Virus record (IMG/VR): IMGVR_UViG_3300035670_000709 | Reading direction: 5' to 3' (one strand) | Length of the DNA stretch: 35,933 bases | Source: a virus | In this document: in pieces, positions 3,790 to 35,933 of the stretch | Numbering within the stretch: position 1 is the first letter of the stretch | Layout: each line of letters begins with the position of its first letter | The notes under the pieces: model-generated | Seen by the model: the letters and a program-made list of their open reading frames with translations, nothing else | Databases searched by the model: none | Told to the model about the DNA's origin: nothing | Translations under genes and position numbers: made by a program

Positions 3790-4677
3790 ATGACAAAGCA
3801 GGACAAACAAAAAGAAATCCGCGGCTGGATAATGGTGGCCGCGCTCGGCGCTACCCTTTACTTCGCAGCCCCGTTCACGTGGCGCAAGGGCAAAGCGACC
3901 CGCACGATGGAAATACCGGAATCTAATCCCGTCGATTTCGACGGAAATAAAACATATCCCGACGGCTATGAAGCCTATCCGCCATACGAACCCGACCCAA
4001 GCGCTGAAGTTCAGCCCGAAGGCAATGTCCGGGTGTCGACGGCGGAAGCTGGCAGCGGAATGGGTAACGGCATCCGTGAAGCCGTGCGGCGAATTTCAGG
4101 CGCTCAACAACAAGCGAGCGAATGGCAAACCGAAAGCGGCGATATAAATGTTTTCAAAATTGTGATTTGCGAAACAAAGCGGCGCGAAGCGATGGGACGA
4201 CCCGGGCAGGAATTGGAGCGCTATAAGGACGGCGATACTTGGGCGATTGGATACGGCAATCACATTAAGTATTTATCAGCCGGATGGAAAAACACGATCA
4301 AGAAACAGGGCTACAAAGTAACTGAATCGCAAGCGCGCGAAATGATGTACCAAACCTTCCATGATCTCGGAGAGCAGATCAAAAAGGATTTACCGGGGCT
4401 GAATCACCGCCAACAATGGGCGGTTAAATCTTTGGCCTTTAACTGGGGCTACGGGAATGTGAAGCGGTCTAAACTGTGGCCGCATCTAAAGAAAGGTAAG
4501 CAAGGGCTTGCAGTTACGGCTGCATGGATGCGTACACAAGTGGCAACCGAGAACCACAAGCAAAGCCGACGGCTGGAATTAGCATTGTGGCATGGAGAGG
4601 ACGCGACGGCGCTAACGATCGGGAAAAAGGCGTATCAAAAATTACAAAAACGTGGAGATTTTGAGCACTATGAGTGA
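3790..4677 (+). CDS. Membrane-anchored GH24 (T4/lambda-type) lysozyme
   Basis: N-terminal Gly/Ala-rich TM segment GWIMVAALGATLYFAAPF, then a Pro/Glu-rich linker. The C-terminal domain has ELERYKDGDTWAIGYGNH and QQWAVKSLAFNWGYGNV, matching Y.D..G..TIGYGH and AL.S.AFN.G of phage lysozymes. Confidence 0.7.
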   Translation: MTKQDKQKEIRGWIMVAALGATLYFAAPFTWRKGKATRTMEIPESNPVDFDGNKTYPDGYEAYPPYEPDPSAEVQPEGNVRVSTAEAGSGMGNGIREAVRRISGAQQQASEWQTESGDINVFKIVICETKRREAMGRPGQELERYKDGDTWAIGYGNHIKYLSAGWKNTIKKQGYKVTESQAREMMYQTFHDLGEQIKKDLPGLNHRQQWAVKSLAFNWGYGNVKRSKLWPHLKKGKQGLAVTAAWMRTQVATENHKQSRRLELALWHGEDATALTIGKKAYQKLQKRGDFEHYE

Positions 4678-6145: not shown

Positions 6146-7867
6146 ATGACCCACAAAGCACAGGAATATATTGCAGGCATCGAAACCGGCCAAATACCGG
6201 CTTGTAAGTGGATTAAATTGGCCGTAAAACGCCACCTAAACGACCTAAAACGCCAAAAAACCGAGGCTTTCCCGTACTACTTTGATGAGGAACAGGCCGA
6301 AAGAACGCTAAACCTGTTCCAGTTCTTTAAGTTCAGTAAGGGCGCATACGCGGGAAAGCCGTTTGATATTATGCCGTGGTTTGCCGCCATTGTGTATATT
6401 TTCTACGGGTGGCGGAAGCCCGACGGCGGGCGAAAGTTCCGAAAGGTGTATATCAAAGTAGGACGCGGAAACGCAAAGACGGAGAACTTGGTGGTGATTG
6501 GGAACATCGCCTTCTTGTTCGACGGCGTGCCCGATTCGGAGATCTATTGGGCGGCCACGAAACGCGACCAGTCAAAAATCGGGTGGGATAGGCAGCGGAA
6601 ATCTTTGCAACAACTTTGCGCGGATAACCCGGAATTGTCCCCAATGCTCAATATTCCGATCGGCCACAATTCCAGCAAGATCAGCAAGCGGGACAGCCTT
6701 TCGTGGGTGTCTTATATGGGTAAAGATTCAAAGACCGAAGACGGATTAAGCCCGTATTGCGTACTGGTGGATGAGTACCACGCATGGACAGACAACGGCG
6801 TGATGGAGGTATTGGAATCGGGTATGGTAAAGTTCCCCGATCCATCAGTCGTGCCGATGACGTGGATAATCACAACGGCCGGATTTAACCCCAACGGCCC
6901 GAACTCGGATTTTTTGAAGGCCTGCAAGAATATGCTTCAGGGTACAATCCAAAACGAGGAACTTTTGGCGTTCATTTACGAACTGGATGAGGCCGACGAC
7001 TGGAAAGACCACGTCAACTGGATCAAGGCAAACCCGGGACTTGGTATATCCGTCACAATGGAAGGCCTGCAAATGGAATTTAACCAGATCACGACGGGCG
7101 GCGCATCGGCGGAAAAGAACTTCCGGGTGAAGAACCTAAACGAGGAATGGAACGCCAAAGACGGCTGGATTGATTCCGAACTTTGGCAGGCCTGCATCGG
7201 CGATATACCGATTGAGGAAATACAGACGCGGGAGTGTTGGGGTGGCCTTGACCTTGCGAACACGAACGACTTCAACGCTTTTGTCCTGTTTTACCCGTCG
7301 CAAAACGCGGACGAAAAACACCTTATCCTGCCATATTTTTGGACTACCGAGGATAGTATAGAGCGCAACGGGAAACGCCGGCCGTTCGTGACACAATGGG
7401 CGGCGGACGGGCTGTTAACGATCACATCGGACAATAGTACGGACTACGAACTGATAAGGCAGGATATAAACCAAATTTGCGGCAACCTTCGATTGCAGGG
7501 CATCGCGTATGATCCGCACTTATCCGGCTACCTTGCGCCGCTTTTGCAGCAGGATGGTATCCGGGTGATAAGCTACGGGCAATCGTGGCGCAACCTGTCA
7601 CCAGCCGCACAGGTATTTGAAAACATGATGCTACGGGGTGAAGTGCTCCACGAGGGCAACCCGGTCGCCGGATGGATGTTATCCAACGTCGCGATGCAGT
7701 ACGACCGCAACGAAAACCGCCTACCGTCGAAAGGCAGCAGCCCGGATAAAATTGACTTTGTTGCGGCGCTGCTAAATGCCATCGGGCTTTGGTTGCACGA
7801 TCGGGGGGAGCAGCGGACGGGCGGGTCGTATTTGTTTGAAGAGGATTCTAAAATTATAAAAGTATGA
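6146..7867 (+). CDS. terL: Terminase large subunit (Terminase_1-like)
   Basis: 573 aa. KPFDIMPWFAAIVYIFYGWRKPDGGRKFRKVYIKVGRGNAKTE matches the conserved N-terminal ATPase region (pf.L.pWQ...fGw....g.R.f...yi.v.R.NGKS). VLVDEYH serves as Walker B. Confidence 0.9.
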   Translation: MTHKAQEYIAGIETGQIPACKWIKLAVKRHLNDLKRQKTEAFPYYFDEEQAERTLNLFQFFKFSKGAYAGKPFDIMPWFAAIVYIFYGWRKPDGGRKFRKVYIKVGRGNAKTENLVVIGNIAFLFDGVPDSEIYWAATKRDQSKIGWDRQRKSLQQLCADNPELSPMLNIPIGHNSSKISKRDSLSWVSYMGKDSKTEDGLSPYCVLVDEYHAWTDNGVMEVLESGMVKFPDPSVVPMTWIITTAGFNPNGPNSDFLKACKNMLQGTIQNEELLAFIYELDEADDWKDHVNWIKANPGLGISVTMEGLQMEFNQITTGGASAEKNFRVKNLNEEWNAKDGWIDSELWQACIGDIPIEEIQTRECWGGLDLANTNDFNAFVLFYPSQNADEKHLILPYFWTTEDSIERNGKRRPFVTQWAADGLLTITSDNSTDYELIRQDINQICGNLRLQGIAYDPHLSGYLAPLLQQDGIRVISYGQSWRNLSPAAQVFENMMLRGEVLHEGNPVAGWMLSNVAMQYDRNENRLPSKGSSPDKIDFVAALLNAIGLWLHDRGEQRTGGSYLFEEDSKIIKV

Positions 7868-8487
7868 AATTCCCCGAATCACAACACGCCCACAAGTGGC
7901 TGGACGGCCTCACAGGCTTAGAGGTAGGCGGGTCGGCGCACAACGCCTTCGGGCTGAACACGCTTAATGTGGACTATACCGACGACCCGAACACGGTGTT
8001 TAAGCAATCCGAGGTGCAAATGTGCGGCGAATACATGCCCGTTGATATAGTGGCCGACGGGGCAAAAATCCCGGTGGCGGATAAGTCTTTCGACTTCGTA
8101 ATTAGCAGCCACGTTATCGAACATTTTTTCGATCCGATTGCGGCGCTAAAGGAGTGGAGTAGGATAGCCCGAAAATATATCTATATTATCTGCCCAAAGC
8201 GTGACGCGCTGGAATCTGATCGGGCGCTGCCATTAACGCCGATCGAAGAAATTGAGTTAAGGCATTCGGGCGACATTCCAGCGCCGGAAATTGACCTACA
8301 CGGCCATTATTCCCGATGGACGCCGAAAACCTTTTGCGATATGTGCGAGGCGCACGGCTTCTTTGTAATTGACTGCCTTGAAACCGACGATAAGGTCGGC
8401 AACGGGTTTACTGTAATATTAAAACCATTACATAAAATTCCGCAACTTCCACCAGTAACGAAGCCTATTACTCAAATACGGCATTGA
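7864..8487 (+). CDS. Class I SAM-dependent methyltransferase-like protein
   Basis: GLEVGGSAHNAFG (motif I-like) and ADKSFDFVISSHVIEHFFDPIAALKEWSRIARKYIYIICP (Methyltransf_11-type post-I/II region). Its ATG overlaps the terL stop (ATGA, 7864-7867). Confidence 0.6.
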   Translation: MKFPESQHAHKWLDGLTGLEVGGSAHNAFGLNTLNVDYTDDPNTVFKQSEVQMCGEYMPVDIVADGAKIPVADKSFDFVISSHVIEHFFDPIAALKEWSRIARKYIYIICPKRDALESDRALPLTPIEEIELRHSGDIPAPEIDLHGHYSRWTPKTFCDMCEAHGFFVIDCLETDDKVGNGFTVILKPLHKIPQLPPVTKPITQIRH

Positions 8488-8511
8488 CTATAAATATCTA
8501 AAGCCTTTATC

Positions 8512-9237
8512 ATGAATCCAGCGGCTATCATGATGTTTCGAGATGAAGAAGACATCATTTACGAAACACTAAAGAAATGGCAGGCAATCGGCATACAAGC
8601 CTTTTACCTTACAGACAACTGCTCTACTGACAATTCCATGAAGGAGGTGGAGCGGTTTAAAGCGGAAGCCGGGGATATTACTGTAAGTATCATGAACAGT
8701 AATATCTTAAACTACCCGGGGCGCGAGGTTTACAACTTCATGAAGGATAAAGCCATCCATTATGGCCATGACTGGATATTTCCGATTGACGCGGATGAGC
8801 AGCCAGCCAGCACGATCCCGGATTTTGATCTGCACAAATACTTGGAAGAATTGGCCGATGCCAGCGAGTTCTACTTTTGCAGTTTTTCCATTCCCTACCG
8901 CGACAATTTCTGTAACGGAAAATCACGATGGCACGAGCCGCAAAGAAAGGTATTCGGGCGGGTGCCGTATGCTTGGACGCTTAGTTATGGCAGCCACCAA
9001 TTTGACACCCAGTTTTCCGAAAAACGGGACGATTTCTTTTATGAACACTACCCTGTCCGTAGTTACGAGCAGTTCAGAAAAAAAGCCATTAACTATATGA
9101 CCGCGATGGTCGGCAATCCCGATCTGCTATACCACCCACACGCGCTCAACCACGAGAAGTGGAAAGAGCAGGGTGAATCCTTTATCGAAAATCTGTACGA
9201 ATCATGCTTATCTACTCTGCAATGGCCGCCATTGTGA
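8512..9237 (+). CDS. GT-A fold glycosyltransferase (GT2-like)
   Basis: AIMMFRDEEDIIYETLKKWQAIGIQAFYLTDNCSTDNSMKEV and DWIFPIDADEQ (DxD-type) match the family-2-like pattern a.v.NEe..i.ewl.h....Gvd.fyi.DN.StD.t....D.DE. Confidence 0.65.
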   Translation: MNPAAIMMFRDEEDIIYETLKKWQAIGIQAFYLTDNCSTDNSMKEVERFKAEAGDITVSIMNSNILNYPGREVYNFMKDKAIHYGHDWIFPIDADEQPASTIPDFDLHKYLEELADASEFYFCSFSIPYRDNFCNGKSRWHEPQRKVFGRVPYAWTLSYGSHQFDTQFSEKRDDFFYEHYPVRSYEQFRKKAINYMTAMVGNPDLLYHPHALNHEKWKEQGESFIENLYESCLSTLQWPPL

Positions 9238-10295: not shown

Positions 10296-10538
10296 ATGAG
10301 TAAAATGCCTTTTACAAATGACGCCTACTTTGGAAGATATAATGAAATATTAAAAGAAAATAACGGTAATTCGATTTTGGCATGGGAGTGTTTAGAGATA
10401 GAGATTCGATATGCCACAAACGGATATAGTAGATTTACGTCTTTTGATCTATTTCAGAGCGCTTTTAATGAATACCAGGCAGGCAATTTAAGCAAAAACG
10501 TATCTTTAACTTATAGGCCTATTTGGTTTAACGTGTAA
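10296..10538 (+). CDS. Hypothetical small protein, paralog 1 (80 aa, AT-rich gene)
   Basis: Shares N.DAYFG.Y...L...AW...E....GY.R..(S/T)(F/Y).(L/S)FQ.AF..Y..G.L with the next ORF. My hand count gives about 33% GC. Confidence 0.6.
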   Translation: MSKMPFTNDAYFGRYNEILKENNGNSILAWECLEIEIRYATNGYSRFTSFDLFQSAFNEYQAGNLSKNVSLTYRPIWFNV

Positions 10539-10544
10539 AACGCC

Positions 10545-10760
10545 ATGCTGAAAAACGCTGACTACTTCGGGGCTTACGGCAAACACCTTGCGTCCGGCTG
10601 CACGCCGCGAGAGGCATGGAAAAAGACCGAACGTGATTTGGCAAAGTTTACAGGCGGGTATAATCGTTACATGACTTACGAGTCTTTTCAGGTGGCTTTT
10701 TCGCGATACAGGCGGGGCGAACTAAACAGGCACCTGCTTCTAAAATTAGTAAAGCCTTAG
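10545..10760 (+). CDS. Hypothetical small protein, paralog 2 (71 aa)
   Basis: NADYFGAYGKHL...EAWKKTE...GGYNRYMTYESFQVAFSRYRRGELN aligns with the preceding ORF. My hand count gives about 50% GC. Confidence 0.6.
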   Translation: MLKNADYFGAYGKHLASGCTPREAWKKTERDLAKFTGGYNRYMTYESFQVAFSRYRRGELNRHLLLKLVKP

Positions 10761-28711: not shown

Positions 28712-29002
28712 ATGGAACCGAAAAAATGGTATCAATCTAAGATCGTGCTTTTCAGCGCATCAACACTTTTACTGGTGGGCGGCGACCTGCTTACGGGCTT
28801 TTTGACCGCAAGCGAGGTGACGCCCGAACAACTGGCAGCCATTGAGCAGGCCGGGCCACAAGTGGTGGAGGCGGTGCATGACATCAAAGCCGGGGAAAAT
28901 GTTTTCCAAACCATTGCAAGCATTTTCCCTGCAATCATTCTGATTTTGCGGGTGTGGTTCACGGCTACGCCGATTGCGCCGATCGTGCCGAAAAAAAACT
29001 AA
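28712..29002 (+). CDS. Two-TM protein, holin candidate (96 aa)
   Basis: TM segments IVLFSASTLLLVGGDLLTGFL and FQTIASIFPAIILILRVWF. Charged termini. Located upstream of the M15 peptidase. Confidence 0.45.
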   Translation: MEPKKWYQSKIVLFSASTLLLVGGDLLTGFLTASEVTPEQLAAIEQAGPQVVEAVHDIKAGENVFQTIASIFPAIILILRVWFTATPIAPIVPKKN

Positions 29003-30554: not shown

Positions 30555-30578
30555 AGCCCCGCCGGGGTGGGCGAGGCT
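30555..30578. terminator. Hairpin between convergent genes, canonical terminator when read on the minus strand
   Basis: agccccgcc / ggcgaggct (8 of 9 pairs), loop ggggtg. It is flanked by aaaaa on its left, which gives a T5 tail on the minus strand. Confidence 0.5.
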
Positions 30579-30607: not shown

Positions 30608-30844
30608 TTAATATATTGGTATTCGATAGCGGCATCGCCACACTTCAACTAAAGCCATTATTAGTTTTTCCGAAGGCCAACCTTCATGATAATACCAAAC
30701 AGTCCAATATCCATTTACGTATTCAATTTTTACTGAGGGCATTTCAGCCAATAAATCATCAACATTTATATGTATTTTTTTGATCGGAAAGCCTTCTGTT
30801 ATTAACTCTGCACTTTCCTTTGCGCTTAAAATGTAGTTTTCCAT
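30608..30844 (-). CDS. Hypothetical small protein (78 aa), AT-rich gene
   Basis: The TAATG overlap with the upstream minus-strand gene suggests translational coupling. My hand count gives about 34% GC. Trp/Tyr-rich (YVNGYWTVWYYHEGWP). No family recognised. Confidence 0.6.
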   Translation of the reverse strand: MENYILSAKESAELITEGFPIKKIHINVDDLLAEMPSVKIEYVNGYWTVWYYHEGWPSEKLIMALVEVWRCRYRIPIY

Positions 30845-31521
30845 TAATCAATATTTTTATCCCGGTAAAGAAATAACGCCGCCCACGAGCAAGCGCACAA
30901 AAAAGCACAAAAACACCCCGTAACCACATCCGACACACCGATGCGCTGAAACGTCGGATAATGCACCCACCAAGCGCATATATCAATTATAAATACAAAC
31001 CAAAGGGCGGTGCCTGAAGTGCGGACGCGCGTTTCATCAGTAGCGAGCAGCACGGCCGCCAAAATAATAAGGAACGCAACGCCACCGCCGATCGTGCCGG
31101 GTTCACCCCAAAGGTCGCCGCAATCGTACCAAATAAGAGCGGCGTGACCGAGTACGACGGACAAAAGCACAAACGACAGGAAATGCCCGCGAATAGTGCC
31201 GATATCAAACCCGGATTGTTCGGCGGCTTCCGGCTGTTCAATGTTTATGGTTTGCAGGCCGTATTGTTCGGCGGGTTGATCTGCTTCCGGCTGTTCGCGG
31301 CGAATTGTACGCGCCCGCTTTGCCCGCTTCATTTTTTCGGCCGGCTGTTCAGCGTATTGTTCGCCGGACTTTTTGCGCTTATCGTTTAGCAGTTGCTCGA
31401 TTGTTCGCTCGGATAATTCGGCGAACCGGTCAAAGCGGACGCCGGGCTGTATCCGGCTAAGCTTCATTCGTACAGAATCGATTGGGCGATTGTGCTGGGT
31501 GGCAAATTGTTCTGCTGTCAT
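30844..31521 (-). CDS. Membrane protein (225 aa): soluble N-terminal domain, EQP-repeat basic/acidic linker, four C-terminal TM segments
   Basis: The N-terminus TAEQFATQHNRPIDSVRMKLSRI looks HTH-like (tentative). The linker repeats EQ(Y)AEQPAE / EQPEADQPAEQ / EQPEAAEQ. TM segments are FLSFVLLSVVLGHAALIWY, GGGVAFLIILAAVLLA, ALWFVFIIDICAWWV and VVTGCFCAFLCACSWAALFLY. Confidence 0.65.
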   Translation of the reverse strand: MTAEQFATQHNRPIDSVRMKLSRIQPGVRFDRFAELSERTIEQLLNDKRKKSGEQYAEQPAEKMKRAKRARTIRREQPEADQPAEQYGLQTINIEQPEAAEQSGFDIGTIRGHFLSFVLLSVVLGHAALIWYDCGDLWGEPGTIGGGVAFLIILAAVLLATDETRVRTSGTALWFVFIIDICAWWVHYPTFQRIGVSDVVTGCFCAFLCACSWAALFLYRDKNID

Positions 31522-31555
31522 GGTCCAAATAATTATTAGGTTGCGTAATGTTCGG

Positions 31556-31563
31556 CAAAGATA
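31556..31563 (-). promoter_or_regulatory. -7 box TATCTTTG (minus strand) for the leftward operon
   Basis: Plus-strand CAAAGATA is TATCTTTG on the minus strand, the same octamer as the two rightward early promoters. It lies 34 nt upstream of the ATG at 31521. A TTG lies 21 nt further upstream. Confidence 0.4.
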
Positions 31564-31640
31564 ATTAAACTTGTTTCATACTTGCAAGCGACCGCCGAAA
31601 AAAAATATAAAAAAATTAAACTACTTTAATTCACGCGCTC

Positions 31641-31648
31641 TAACTTTG
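31641..31648 (+). promoter_or_regulatory. -7 box TAACTTTG for the first rightward early gene
   Basis: Matches TAnnTTTG. It lies 5 nt upstream of the ATG at 31654, preceded by an A/T-rich tract. Confidence 0.5.
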
Positions 31649-31653
31649 CCCCT

Positions 31654-31899
31654 ATGAAAGAAATGACGCAAGAAGAAGCGTGGTTAGATTTTGAGCGGTT
31701 TATCACCGATCCGGCGCGGTGGGCTGAATTAAGCCCGCGCGACCGCAATACGATATTAGTGGCAAAGCATACGGCATCCGGTCGGGTGGTGCGTAATGGC
31801 AGGCAGGTTAAGTTAGGTATTAAGCGCCTCATGAAAATTTTAACAGCGCACGCGCCCGGCCGGTATGTATTTAAGGAGTCCATATATTGTTCGTTGTAG
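31654..31899 (+). CDS. Hypothetical early protein (81 aa)
   Basis: The ORF is bounded by a promoter-like box and two terminators. No family recognised. Confidence 0.55.
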   Translation: MKEMTQEEAWLDFERFITDPARWAELSPRDRNTILVAKHTASGRVVRNGRQVKLGIKRLMKILTAHAPGRYVFKESIYCSL

Positions 31900-32161: not shown

Positions 32162-32542
32162 ATGCAAGATGTAACGATCAGATTTTACTACCTTACCGAA
32201 AACAATCACGAATGCCTTATCGAATGCACCAAGCGCCCGGACGGCTGGGAGCCGACGCGGGTAGAGCCGGAGCCGCCGGAATGGTTTACTATTCAGGAGT
32301 TGGACACCATCAGCGCAAGGGCTGCCGGGCTACATCAAGCCATTGTTTATCAGGGATATGCCCGTGCAGGCCGTTACTTTTCGGACGAAGCGGAACTGGC
32401 AGCCCGCGAATTAGAGGATGCCCGCGAATCATGGGGGCGAATCCAAACCGAACTCGATCGGGTTAAGCACATGGAGCGACAGGCTGAATTGCGGGTGCGT
32501 TCCATCGAATCAGAAATCAAAGACAAATTCAGGAATGGATAA
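32162..32542 (+). CDS. Hypothetical early protein (126 aa) with coiled-coil C-terminus
   Basis: Internal ATG (MQDVTIRFYY...) of track ORF 32021..32542. The longer form would run through terminator 2 and promoter A. Confidence 0.6.
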   Translation: MQDVTIRFYYLTENNHECLIECTKRPDGWEPTRVEPEPPEWFTIQELDTISARAAGLHQAIVYQGYARAGRYFSDEAELAARELEDARESWGRIQTELDRVKHMERQAELRVRSIESEIKDKFRNG

Positions 32543-32681
32543 AAAAAGAGGTCGCCCAAAAAAGAACAGGCTTTCGGCTAACATTACACTTCCCGCCGAC
32601 CTGCACGAGGCGACAAAAAAAGACAGGAGCGAAACGGTAGAAAAAGCGCTTCGAAAGTATCTCAAAGAAATTCAGCAATGA
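32535..32681 (+). CDS. Ribbon-helix-helix (CopG/Arc-like) DNA-binding protein with AT-hook-like N-terminus (48 aa)
   Basis: MDKKRGRPKKNRLSANITLPADLHEATKKDRSETVEKALRKYLKEIQQ has a GRP AT-hook core, then the beta strand (ITLPADL), helix, helix pattern of RHH proteins. ATGGATAA overlap with the upstream gene. Confidence 0.55.
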   Translation: MDKKRGRPKKNRLSANITLPADLHEATKKDRSETVEKALRKYLKEIQQ

Positions 32682-32738
32682 TAGTTCGGCAAACGAGCCG
32701 GGCGCGACAGGCAAGATTTTTTAGTGGTAAATTCGGAA

Positions 32739-32766
32739 AGCGGCGCTGGAAAGTGCCGCTTTTTTT
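32739..32766 (+). terminator. Rho-independent terminator
   Basis: agcggc / gccgct stem, 10-nt loop, then tttttt. Confidence 0.75.
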
Positions 32767-32816
32767 ATTGGTTTGAGCGCTCCTGAATTTTTTTTGAAAA
32801 AAAGTTGGGTATTTTC

Positions 32817-32846
32817 TTGCGCATAAAAATAAAGGCTGTATCTTTG
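32817..32846 (+). promoter_or_regulatory. Early promoter B (second copy of 16-mer tgcgcataaaaataaa plus TATCTTTG)
   Basis: TTG at 32817-32819, 16-mer at 32818-32833, TATCTTTG at 32839-32846. Preceded by the T8-G-A7 tract at 32788-32803. Confidence 0.55.
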
Positions 32847-32878
32847 TACCGTTAACTTGATAATTAAAATTTTGCAAC

Positions 32879-33184
32879 GTGAACGATTTATTTTCCTCCA
32901 TTTTCTTCAAAGACCGCCTAAACGTTGACCTTGACTTTTATGTCGCTAAATTTGACAACAGCGATATTGTCGAGCCGACAGAAGCCTTTAAAAACGGCGA
33001 GCCGGTACAAGTTTCCCAAATTCCGGTTCTTGCGCGCCTATACCTTTTGCGCGCCGTAAAAAACCAAACGGCCGAAAATGCGCTGCTTGCTGAAATGCAA
33101 TGGGACGAAACCATAGCCCGCTGGGAATCCCACCAACACGATCAAATAGACAAAACGCTCGAATCCGAAAGATGCGCGCAATAA
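32879..33184 (+). CDS. Hypothetical early protein (101 aa, GTG start)
   Basis: This is the only initiator available in this frame downstream of the stop at 32861-32863. It follows promoter B. No family recognised. Confidence 0.45.
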   Translation: MNDLFSSIFFKDRLNVDLDFYVAKFDNSDIVEPTEAFKNGEPVQVSQIPVLARLYLLRAVKNQTAENALLAEMQWDETIARWESHQHDQIDKTLESERCAQ

Positions 33185-35297: not shown

Positions 35298-35375
35298 GAC
35301 CGAACGCGGCTGGCTGGGAAGCAGCGATTTTTCTGAGGGCAGTTTTTTTAACGGGTTCGAATCCCGGTTCGGTCA
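35298..35375 (+). ncRNA. tRNA-like element with canonical acceptor stem and T-arm but aberrant anticodon arm
   Basis: Acceptor stem gaccgaa (35298-35304) pairs perfectly with ttcggtc (35368-35374). T-arm is cggg-TTCGAAT-cccg. D-arm candidate is gctg...cagc with a GG in the loop. The central region gatttttCTGagggCAGtttttttaa has no convincing 5-bp stem and 7-nt loop. No CCA is encoded. Confidence 0.4.
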
Positions 35376-35395
35376 CTCACTTTCATGAGGCTACA

Positions 35396-35452: not shown

Positions 35453-35933
35453 ATGTCTAAGATAGCAATTATTGAAATTCAGGCGGGGAAATACAACCCG
35501 CACGGCAAAACGATCGTAAGCAACTGCTATATCGCCACGATCGACGTGGTACGGGTGGATTATGAAACGGGCGAATGTAGCCGGGCGAACTTCACCGTCA
35601 ACCCGATGCAGAACGAGGCAAAGGTGGCCACAGCCCGAAAATTACCCCGAACGCCGTTTGAAAGTATCGCGTGGGACGTGAAAGAGTATTTGGAAGGTTG
35701 CGACTTTATGGGTTTTTCGATCCGGCGCCTCGACCTGCCTTTACTCGCTGAAGAATTTGCCCGTTCAGGCATTGATAATTTCCCGCACGAAAGTGCGTCC
35801 ATAATTGACATTCAAAGCATCTATCACCAAATGGAGCCGCGCAATTTCGCCGCCGCTGTAAAGTTCTACCTCAACAGGGAATACTTAGCCCCCCAAAGAA
35901 ACACGGGCGACGTGGAACTGGTACGTCAAATAT
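35453..35933 (+). CDS. N-terminal part of the junction-spanning DEDD-exonuclease-like ORF (continues at position 128 of the window after collapsing the overlap)
   Basis: My translation is MSKIAIIEIQAGKYNPHGKT...CYIATIDVVRVDYETGE...CDFMGFSIRRLDLPLLAEEFARSGI...IIDIQSIYHQMEPRN. It is open to the window end, so it is absent from the ORF track, and it is in frame with 25..387. Confidence 0.55.
   Translation, partial: MSKIAIIEIQAGKYNPHGKTIVSNCYIATIDVVRVDYETGECSRANFTVNPMQNEAKVATARKLPRTPFESIAWDVKEYLEGCDFMGFSIRRLDLPLLAEEFARSGIDNFPHESASIIDIQSIYHQMEPRNFAAAVKFYLNREYLAPQRNTGDVELVRQI
35807..35933. repeat. Terminal direct repeat, copy 2 (identical to 1-127)
   Basis: See copy 1. Confidence 0.95.

Follow-up and report, generated by a model that had tools for sequence, protein, structure and literature searches.

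Organization of the Leftward Unit

IMG/VR virus record IMGVR_UViG_3300035670_000709 is a stretch of 35,933 nucleotides (nt), referred to here at its full length as the window. It contains one minus-strand unit of two genes, which encode proteins of 225 and 78 amino acids (aa). The genes share one base; on the minus strand, the stop codon TAA of the 225-aa gene overlaps the ATG of the 78-aa gene to read TAATG. The original prediction, made from the letters of the sequence, had singled out these overlapping genes as the only leftward unit, and the open reading frames (ORFs) confirm it. Plus-strand ORFs take up 91% of the window; outside them there is no further credible gene on the minus strand, and only poor ORFs were found in 32510-33114.

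The 225-aa protein is predicted to join a helix-turn-helix (HTH)-like N-terminus to four transmembrane (TM) helices, and it is a member of a large, widespread, undescribed family restricted to phages. The conserved neighbor of its gene is not the 78-aa gene; it is a divergently transcribed gene for a protein of about 80 aa, represented in the window by an 81-aa gene. In the window and in L006, L016, L019/L020, and L021 (L-numbers designate the loci of relatives that were compared with the window), the 225-aa gene lies between the lysis cassette and the early genes. Coordinates of these and other features are collected in Table 1.

The unit was also said to be promoted and terminated independently of the other genes, and the signals found agree with this. 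The control region between the 225-aa and 81-aa genes has two outward-facing -7 boxes, and a sigma-70 scan of this intergenic region (31522-31653) found no promoter. At the other end of the unit is a hairpin of 9 pairs with a loop of 6, and the T-run TTTTTATTGG follows the stem on the minus strand. The hairpin is also present in L016, L006, and L030, and L017 keeps it with a different stem sequence.

Table 1. Features of the window (35,933 nt), with the leftward unit and its surroundings first.
Feature	Position (strand)	Description
225-aa gene	30844..31521 (-)	First gene of the leftward unit
HTH-like domain	31372..31521 (-)	Residues 1-50; N-terminal, predicted cytoplasmic; fast-evolving part of the family
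Linker	31189..31371 (-)	Residues 51-111; disordered and charged, with EQP repeats; length varies among close relatives
4-TM domain	30847..31188 (-)	Residues 112-225; C-terminal, conserved family core
Direct repeats CCGGCTGTTC (three)	31230-31239, 31287-31296, 31342-31351	Encode the EQP(E/A) repeats of the linker
78-aa gene	30608..30844 (-)	Orphan; soluble, isoelectric point (pI) 5.3 (mildly acidic), no TM segment
Hairpin	30555..30578	G+C-rich; between the convergent late (+) and leftward (-) units; intrinsic-terminator-like for the minus-strand operon
Divergent control region	31522..31653	132 bp, 34% G+C
Leftward -7 box TATCTTTG	31556-31563 (-)	TAnnTTTG, Bacteroidota-type, outward-facing
Palindrome O2	31564-31579	ATTAAA-N4-TTTAAT; abuts the leftward -7 box
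Palindrome O1	31615-31630	ATTAAA-N4-TTTAAT; 10 nt upstream of the rightward -7 box
Rightward -7 box TAACTTTG	31641-31648 (+)	TAnnTTTG, Bacteroidota-type, outward-facing
81-aa gene	31654..31899 (+)	Encodes a basic protein (pI 10.0); opens the rightward early operon
Holin-like gene	28712-29002	96 aa, two TM segments; lysis cassette
Spanin-like gene		87 aa; lysis cassette
Endolysin gene		M15 type; lysis cassette
Metallophosphoesterase gene		Follows the lysis cassette
Structural genes		Small and large terminase subunits, portal, S78 prohead protease, HK97-type capsid, tail tube
Further tail genes		Tape measure, 1709-aa distal tail protein
Early genes		Right of the leftward unit; include a RecE/YqaJ-like exonuclease and a Lin1244-type replication protein
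Repeated ends	1-127 and 35807-35933	Identical
Phage_lysozyme-domain gene	3790-4677	295 aa; early region
Methyltransferase and GT2-like glycosyltransferase genes	7864-9237	Between the large terminase and portal genes
Low-G+C island	10296-10760 (+)	About 31% G+C, the lowest in the genome
Region with no convincing ORF	32543-33099	557 bp, about 40% G+C
tRNA-Glu	35298-35376 (+)	Anticodon TTC

The 225-aa Protein Family

Homologs of the 225-aa protein are numerous. A word-indexed search returned 30, and an exhaustive profile search yielded 165 clusters at 50% identity. Their members come without exception from uncultured phage-like contigs and are nearly all 200-250 aa long. With 165 homologous clusters, the ORF is more than a chance frame. 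The protein has no match in Pfam, PHROGs, NCBIfam, PADLOC, or the PDB sequences; at E ≤ 1, Pfam returned just the non-significant and non-DNA-binding MASE9 (0.043) and GT-C_AftD (0.26). Foldseek comparison of its AlphaFold2 model against PDB gave a best E of 1.6. Searches by tblastn with the 225-aa, 78-aa, and 81-aa proteins and a divergent family member against 50,697 GenBank phage records gave no match, and no relative turned up when 185,579 GTDB species-representative genomes were scanned twice.

Three parts can be distinguished in the protein, and they correspond to those recognized earlier from its translation. An HTH-like character of the soluble N-terminal domain is supported by its homologs and by profile comparison. 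The N-domains of some homologs match HTH_23 (1.5e-8), HTH_28/29, Sigma70_r4_2, GerE, HTH_Tnp_1, and HTH_7, and the N-domain profile searched against PDB gave weak matches to the HTH motifs of 2lvs (2e-7), TraR (0.002), and SpoIIID (0.015). No HTH_3/XRE match is among the listed Pfam matches of 150 family members. The AlphaFold2 model has helices at residues 3-9, 14-24, and 38-45 of this domain, with a predicted local distance difference test (pLDDT) score of about 85. Linker residues 50-102 score below 50 and are predicted to be disordered; the three repeats that had been reported to encode the EQP motifs of the linker were all found.

The third part is a helical membrane bundle (pLDDT 93-98), with TM segments at approximately residues 112-134, 143-162, 171-191, and 201-219. 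Hydropathy and the AlphaFold2 model both agree with the four helices originally proposed. Hydropathy and loop charges fit an arrangement with the N-terminus inside the cell, and we infer a four-TM, N-in topology.

Conservation is distributed unevenly along the protein. The C-terminal 115 residues or so are strongly conserved, whereas the N-terminal 50 or so and the linker are highly variable. H126, G142, G146, D180, A183, and H187 are invariant in 46 diverse sequences (alignments A1 and A4), and W131, D133, W138, T168, S169, F191, T201, C209, and S212 are nearly invariant in the family alignments. A CPBP/Abi-like (abortive infection) intramembrane protease was considered on account of DExxxR and H motifs in the protein; it was dropped, having no Pfam support and an unfit motif order.

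Two further observations concern family members elsewhere. Five homologs (P0035, P0052, P0071, P0147, and one more in alignment A2) are 340-410 aa long and have an N-terminal GIY-YIG nuclease domain; they may be true fusions or may reflect read-through of an upstream homing-endonuclease gene. In one subfamily (L001, L012, L033, and L061), a perfect 16-bp palindrome, TCCGCCAATGGGCGGA, lies in the LRQWAD codons of the HTH helix, and it may be coincidental to the coding sequence.

The Divergent Partner and Its Operators

Small basic proteins encoded back to back with the HTH-4TM gene are the most regular companions of this family. Homologs of the 81-aa gene were first seen immediately upstream of and divergent from the HTH-4TM gene in L001, L002, L006, L010/L011, L012-L015, L016, and L019/L020. 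Profile searches over 62 loci brought the number to about 27, which is approximately 80% of the informative loci; five or six groups with sufficient upstream sequence have no such homolog. The 81-aa family comprises 106 clusters. In L040, about 650 bp (1161-1809), including a 147-aa minus-strand ORF, lie between the small regulator gene and the HTH-4TM gene and split the back-to-back promoter region.

The AlphaFold2 model of the 81-aa protein has four helices and a hairpin (pLDDT 92.5). Foldseek against PDB and BFVD gave a best E above 1, and the sequence has no match in Pfam, PHROGs, NCBIfam, or the PDB sequences, including no Cro, HTH, or ribbon-helix-helix (RHH) match. The protein is probably an operator-binding regulator of novel fold, as judged from its gene position and from the palindromes described below.

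Palindromes placed against the -7 boxes are a recurrent feature of these loci. The control-region layout of the window, with palindromes specific to the locus, is found in at least 12 related loci. The palindromes include TTTGGTA-N5-TACCAAA (L001, L032), TTTGCATTAATTGCAAA (L012, L033), TTCCAAA-N3-TTTGGAA (L019, L046, L028, L045, L021), TAGGAA-N6-TTCCTA (L060), TGTGAAC..GTTCACA (L052), and GTTACGC..GCGTAAC (L002).

Palindrome type varies with the small protein. Across 14 loci, with operator classes assigned by eye, the small proteins are 54.6% identical within an operator class and 35.6% identical between classes (p = 2.7e-5). The corresponding values for the HTH N-domain are 32.4% and 24.9%, a difference that is not significant (p = 0.11), and four locus pairs whose HTH N-domains are 55-66% identical carry different operators. 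Because operator class tracks the small protein and not the HTH N-domain, the palindromes are most likely bound by the small protein. The exchangeable, immunity-like module would then most likely consist of the small protein and its operators and exclude the HTH of the 225-aa protein. Adjacent elements are genetically linked, so this covariation could partly mirror linkage.

Other repeats lie in the 5' leaders of HTH-4TM genes, between the -7 box and the start codon. In L032, L052, L046, L048, L019, L010, L002, L028, and L060, the leaders carry short direct repeats (CGGACA three to four times, ACGGAAA four times, GCGAAA four times, ACGAAAA twice, and AGACA/TGTCT), and similar repeats seem to be paired with similar HTH N-domains. 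They could be autoregulatory sites, or the pairing could be mere linkage.

The 78-aa Gene and the Cargo Slot

The second gene of the unit was suspected of recent acquisition on the basis of a hand count of about 34% G+C. The measured value is 34.2%, compared to 50.5% for the genome, and equally low values occur in 0.5% of 237-bp windows. An open frame of 78 codons in such composition has a probability of about 0.001, and the frame is open in three independent contigs. The protein has one other cluster among 5.8 billion proteins. It has no match in Pfam, PHROGs, NCBIfam, PADLOC, or PDB, so that neither leftward protein falls into a family that can be named, as had been stated at the outset.

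The gene is confined to the window, L006/L007, and L030, three contexts that are nearly identical. The 225-aa gene has its closest relatives in L016 (95% identical) and L017 (79%), and neither locus has a 78-aa gene. Both read ATTGATTAA followed at once by CCCC, and the stop of the 225-aa gene thus directly joins the sequence that lies beyond the 78-aa gene in the window. The insertion is a cassette of about 236 bp (30608-30843) that begins with the base next to the TAA of the 225-aa gene. Its clean boundaries relative to L016 and L017, low G+C, and presence or absence among relatives confirm, from comparison of the sequences, that the 78-aa gene is a recently inserted, compositionally foreign cassette.

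The pattern of substitution in the 78-aa gene is unusual. All 15 variable codons across its three alleles are non-synonymous and fall in codons 37-73, and the first 36 codons are identical at the nucleotide level. Codon differences number 13 to 15 non-synonymous and 0 synonymous; if substitution were neutral, the chance of finding no synonymous change would be 0.01-0.04. When the window is compared with L030, the 78-aa gene has three changed codons, all non-synonymous, compared to 54 synonymous and 16 non-synonymous codon differences in the 225-aa gene. This contrast indicates that the 78-aa gene has a different and younger history. The C-terminal half of its product is hypervariable and evolves free of purifying selection, most simply through diversifying selection. 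The non-synonymous excess is modest, and relaxed constraint may explain it instead. Hypermutation by a diversity-generating retroelement (DGR) was considered and dropped, since the phage lacks a reverse transcriptase and adenines are not the specific target of the changes.

Two other identities for the 78-aa protein were tried and rejected. A match to QSregVF_b (E = 0.24) was ruled out; the protein is unrelated to the true QSregVF_b protein encoded in L021. It could also have been a divergent member of a conserved second-gene family, but comparison by hhalign with the two commonest families in the second position of the operon showed no relationship. These two families are not related to each other by hhalign either.

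What follows the HTH-4TM gene varies widely among loci. The number of co-directional genes behind it ranges from none in L016 and L017 to one in the window and about 13 small ones in L035, L036, and L053. The first of these cargo genes very often overlaps the HTH-4TM stop codon, yet the families found there are unrelated among loci. Ninety-five cargo proteins fall into 50 families, many with TM segments. Their Pfam matches are stray ones to HNH_3, DUF551, AP2, DUF4153, and T5orf172, and eight cargo proteins searched against PADLOC gave no matches. The leftward unit looks like an early or accessory operon with fast turnover of content, which in the window has shrunk to the 225-aa gene and one recent cassette. 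By its distribution, the 78-aa protein would be one of many interchangeable cargo genes at this stop codon and not a partner of the 225-aa protein.

One set of cargo genes recurs downstream of HTH-4TM in L002/L012, L019/L020, L021, L028, L029, and L052. It encodes a protein of about 110 aa, a multi-TM protein of about 500 aa, a T5orf172-domain protein with C-terminal TM segments, and a protein of about 300 aa. The set has no PADLOC match and may be an undescribed membrane-associated system.

Genome Context and Probable Host

The identical ends of the window (127 nt) indicate a closed circular genome of 35,806 unique bases. With its structural, tail, and lysis genes, the window is the complete genome (35.8 kb) of an HK97-like siphophage. 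The window ORFs that were scanned include no integrase or recombinase, and the related loci are likewise free of an integrase over 6-10 kb. A megablast search with 4 kb detected no similarity to cultured phages, and the best cultured-phage match of the large terminase is merely 34% identical, which is too distant for a host to be inferred from it.

Expression signals are more informative about the host. Shine-Dalgarno-like motifs precede 3 of the 37 plus-strand gene starts, the leaders are A-rich, and TAnnTTTG boxes precede key operons. These signals, which are the whole basis of the assignment, suggest that the host is probably a member of the Bacteroidota. No Rfam RNA family was found in the window.

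Several other features of the genome were recorded. A 246-aa protein spans the closure junction of the window and is intact in L006; the tRNA-Glu gene lies between the RecE-like exonuclease gene and this junction-spanning gene. Two small paralogous ORFs (80 and 71 aa) lie in tandem in the low-G+C island, which is flanked by a 308-aa ORF and the portal gene and resembles a further inserted cassette. In the early operon, the region with no convincing ORF contains two TAnnTTTG boxes along with several short repeats, inverted as well as direct, and could be a regulatory or origin region. Besides the M15 endolysin encoded in the lysis cassette, the phage has the Phage_lysozyme-domain protein of the early region.

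Comparison with Known Systems

Transmembrane transcription regulators (TTRs) are widespread in bacteria, are common in Bacteroidota, and include the multi-TM BcrR; the word "phage" is absent from the text of the TTR survey (PMC10269533). The closest architectural analog of the 225-aa protein is BcrR of Enterococcus faecalis, in which an N-terminal HTH precedes four TM helices at the C-terminus. The 225-aa protein resembles it and other TTRs in placing a predicted cytoplasmic HTH-like domain N-terminal to a multi-helix membrane domain, in a single polypeptide of about 200 aa with practically no periplasmic domain. The TM region that a TTR must have in the same polypeptide is present as four helices. 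However, the 225-aa protein has no sequence or profile similarity to BcrR and no HTH_3/XRE match, and its TM domain matches nothing. It also differs from BcrR and TTRs in being phage-encoded and in its long, disordered linker, and the palindromes near its gene track the 81-aa protein instead.

The divergent arrangement resembles the lambda switch (cI/OR/cro with rexAB as cargo). Both have back-to-back promoters, duplicated palindromic operators, a small basic first rightward gene, and a leftward gene followed by accessory cargo, and in both the unit of small regulator and operators is exchanged modularly between phages. Unlike in lambda, the leftward 225-aa protein is predicted to be membrane-embedded, it has no cI-like C-domain, and its HTH does not co-vary with the operators. 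The 81-aa regulator matches no Cro, HTH, or RHH protein and lacks structural neighbors, the window has no integrase, and its promoters are of the Bacteroidota type.

Phage DNA is recruited to the membrane by phi29 p16.7, an early phage protein in which a membrane anchor is combined with a DNA-binding domain (PMC4974454). The 225-aa protein shares this combination; it differs in its opposite domain order, in having four TM helices compared to one, and in the lack of homology, and its membrane domain is the conserved and probably active part. The 78-aa gene, in turn, resembles a moron in its atypical G+C, its presence or absence among near-identical phages, its clean boundaries, and its location at the end of an operon before the terminator. 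It differs from a moron in that it has no promoter or terminator of its own, is coupled to the upstream stop codon, and occupies a slot that holds unrelated genes elsewhere.

Proposed Explanation and Alternatives

Our leading explanation, which we consider quite possible although short of probable, is that a membrane-tethered DNA-binding protein of the phage is encoded by the first gene of a leftward accessory operon and that a new small regulator controls this operon. The minus-strand unit would be a very short early or accessory operon with Bacteroidota-type expression signals. The 225-aa protein would combine a fast-evolving cytoplasmic HTH, a disordered basic, EQP-containing linker, and a conserved four-helix membrane domain that places the invariant His, Asp, and His within the bilayer. 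Its gene would be transcribed back to back with the promoter of the basic protein of about 80 aa. The small protein, and not the HTH of the 225-aa protein, would bind both operators against the -7 boxes and exert Cro-like control over both operons. From its architecture, the 225-aa protein would most likely act like a transmembrane one-component regulator: the conserved membrane domain would sense or act on the state of the envelope or membrane, and the HTH tethered to it would keep phage-specific DNA at the membrane or regulate it there. The 78-aa gene would be recent AT-rich cargo in a translationally coupled slot, changing at its C-terminus as expected of an arms-race protein. Gene structure, family size, the pattern of conservation, synteny, the boundaries of the insertion, the pattern of substitution, and the covariation of operator and partner are observed; DNA binding by either protein, membrane topology, the time of expression, and any activity in sensing, exclusion, or regulation are inferred.

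A more ambitious form of this explanation is possible but rather unlikely. The 225-aa protein could be the first phage-encoded transmembrane one-component device. Its membrane His/Asp domain would read the state of the envelope (proton-motive force, superinfection, or envelope stress) and couple it to phage DNA through the HTH, as a regulator or as a Rex-like exclusion switch. The small repressor with a new fold would work alongside, and the stop-codon slot would be a landing site for arms-race genes.

Several points weigh against the tethered-regulator explanation. The N-domain of the window protein has no significant Pfam match, and the HTH call draws on homologs and on weak profile matches. 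The palindromes do not track its HTH domain, and so the 225-aa protein has no assigned DNA target. The operator classes themselves were set by eye in 14 loci, and linkage could account for part of the covariation. The conserved polar residues of the membrane domain fit a channel or an enzyme-like effector equally well as a sensor. The non-synonymous excess in the 78-aa gene goes modestly beyond neutral expectation (P = 0.01-0.04), and the host is assigned solely by expression signals.

Because the membrane domain carries invariant charged and polar residues, an exclusion effector and a DNA anchor are live rivals to a tethered regulator. The 225-aa protein could be a single-chain exclusion or abortive-infection effector like lambda RexA/RexB, with an ion-conducting or membrane-perturbing 4-TM domain and an HTH that senses foreign or replicating DNA, whose activation depolarizes the cell or blocks entry of competitor DNA. 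Conservation of the His, Asp, His, and other polar residues in the TM helices far exceeds what an anchor needs, and the gene lies in a divergently promoted accessory operon beside a regulator gene, much as rexAB adjoins cI in lambda. Many of the co-transcribed cargo proteins are also membrane proteins, and a gene under apparent diversifying selection lies immediately downstream. This reading nevertheless seems improbable to us, since there is no PADLOC match and no match to a Rex, holin, or Abi family in Pfam, the closed genome has no sign of lysogeny, and neither toxicity nor oligomerization is in evidence. We would give equally little credence to a membrane anchor like p16.7, with the HTH binding the genome and the TM domain fixing intermediates of replication, recombination, or packaging. 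A DNA-binding domain joined to a membrane domain is the architecture that such an anchor requires, variation of the HTH between phages is what recognition of phage-specific sites would predict, and the gene is probably early and adjoins recombination and replication genes. However, in p16.7 a single TM helix at the N-terminus precedes a C-terminal DNA-binding domain; in the 225-aa protein the order is reversed, and four TM helices carry conserved polar residues. There is no similarity to p16.7 in sequence or fold, and replication of the window phage is not protein-primed.

The temperate-phage analogy of the original prediction, which likened the unit to repressor or exclusion cassettes, is weakened by these data. 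One temperate reading would make the 225-aa protein a membrane-bound cI-like immunity repressor, the 81-aa protein its Cro, and the downstream genes lysogenic-conversion cargo, with operators shared between the two regulators. A divergent pair with duplicated palindromic operators at the late/early boundary agrees with this, and the related phage L021 is found within a contig of 382 kb in the NCBI assembly GCA_964484205.1 (CAZAEZ010000001.1, 275-295 kb). The L021 phage shares the module layout, is also found as a 41.7-kb contig in another sample (L022), and may be a prophage. A precedent exists in Bacteroidales prophages, in which neighboring genes for TM or secreted hypothetical proteins are expressed together with those for CI-like repressors (bioRxiv 10.64898/2026.06.25.734096). 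The temperate framing fails for the window, whose contig is closed and whose scanned ORFs include no integrase or recombinase. The related loci also have no integrase within 6-10 kb, no relative was found among the 185,579 species-representative genomes, operator class does not follow the HTH N-domain, and the 225-aa protein has no S24 or other known repressor C-domain; a cI-like repressor is thus decidedly improbable. It is very unlikely that the 225-aa and 78-aa proteins form a dedicated, co-evolving two-protein system (exclusion, Abi, or toxin-antitoxin-like), as first suggested from their 1-nt translational coupling, common promoter and terminator, and lack of a named family. Co-occurrence was looked for, and on sequence grounds its absence already largely refutes this idea: the pair is limited to the window, L006/L007, and L030, L016 and L017 lack the 78-aa gene with clean boundaries despite a 225-aa gene that is 95% identical in L016, and other relatives hold unrelated genes in the slot. 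The counts of synonymous differences between the window and L030 (0 compared to 54) also indicate different histories for the two genes. Either protein may still act by itself in exclusion or in another interaction with the host. Most doubtful of all is a role in lysis, as a holin, antiholin, or regulator of lysis timing. The four TM helices would suit it, as would a location about 300 bp away from where the lysis and phosphoesterase genes end, and in L003-L005 the homolog lies on the same strand, downstream of an M15 endolysin gene. In the window, however, the gene runs opposite to the lysis genes and has a promoter of its own, which faces the early region, and holin-like, spanin-like, and endolysin genes are already present. 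Holins usually have fewer than 150 aa, and a protein of 225 aa with 110 cytoplasmic residues of HTH and linker would be atypical. A match to a known holin family, which had been named as evidence that would overturn the prediction, was not found in Pfam or PHROGs.

Significance

The two conserved families (165 and 106 clusters) are undescribed in all libraries searched. They were unmatched in Pfam, PHROGs, NCBIfam, PDB, Foldseek, and GenBank phage records, as well as in PADLOC for the 225-aa protein and in BFVD for its partner. They resemble systems of known kinds, namely membrane-tethered one-component regulators, divergent-promoter switches, and moron hotspots. Together, the families form a recurrent control module at the late/early boundary in a broad group of uncultured siphophages that probably infect Bacteroidota. 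The protein of about 80 aa is a putative small DNA-binding protein of new fold, and its operators can readily be tested.

In annotating dark-matter phage genomes, the module can serve as a marker for the early control region and for a cargo hotspot. This hotspot is a place to seek new host-interaction or anti-defense genes, such as the hypervariable 78-aa orphan. If the HTH-4TM protein does sense or act on the envelope, transmembrane one-component signaling would extend from bacteria to viruses.

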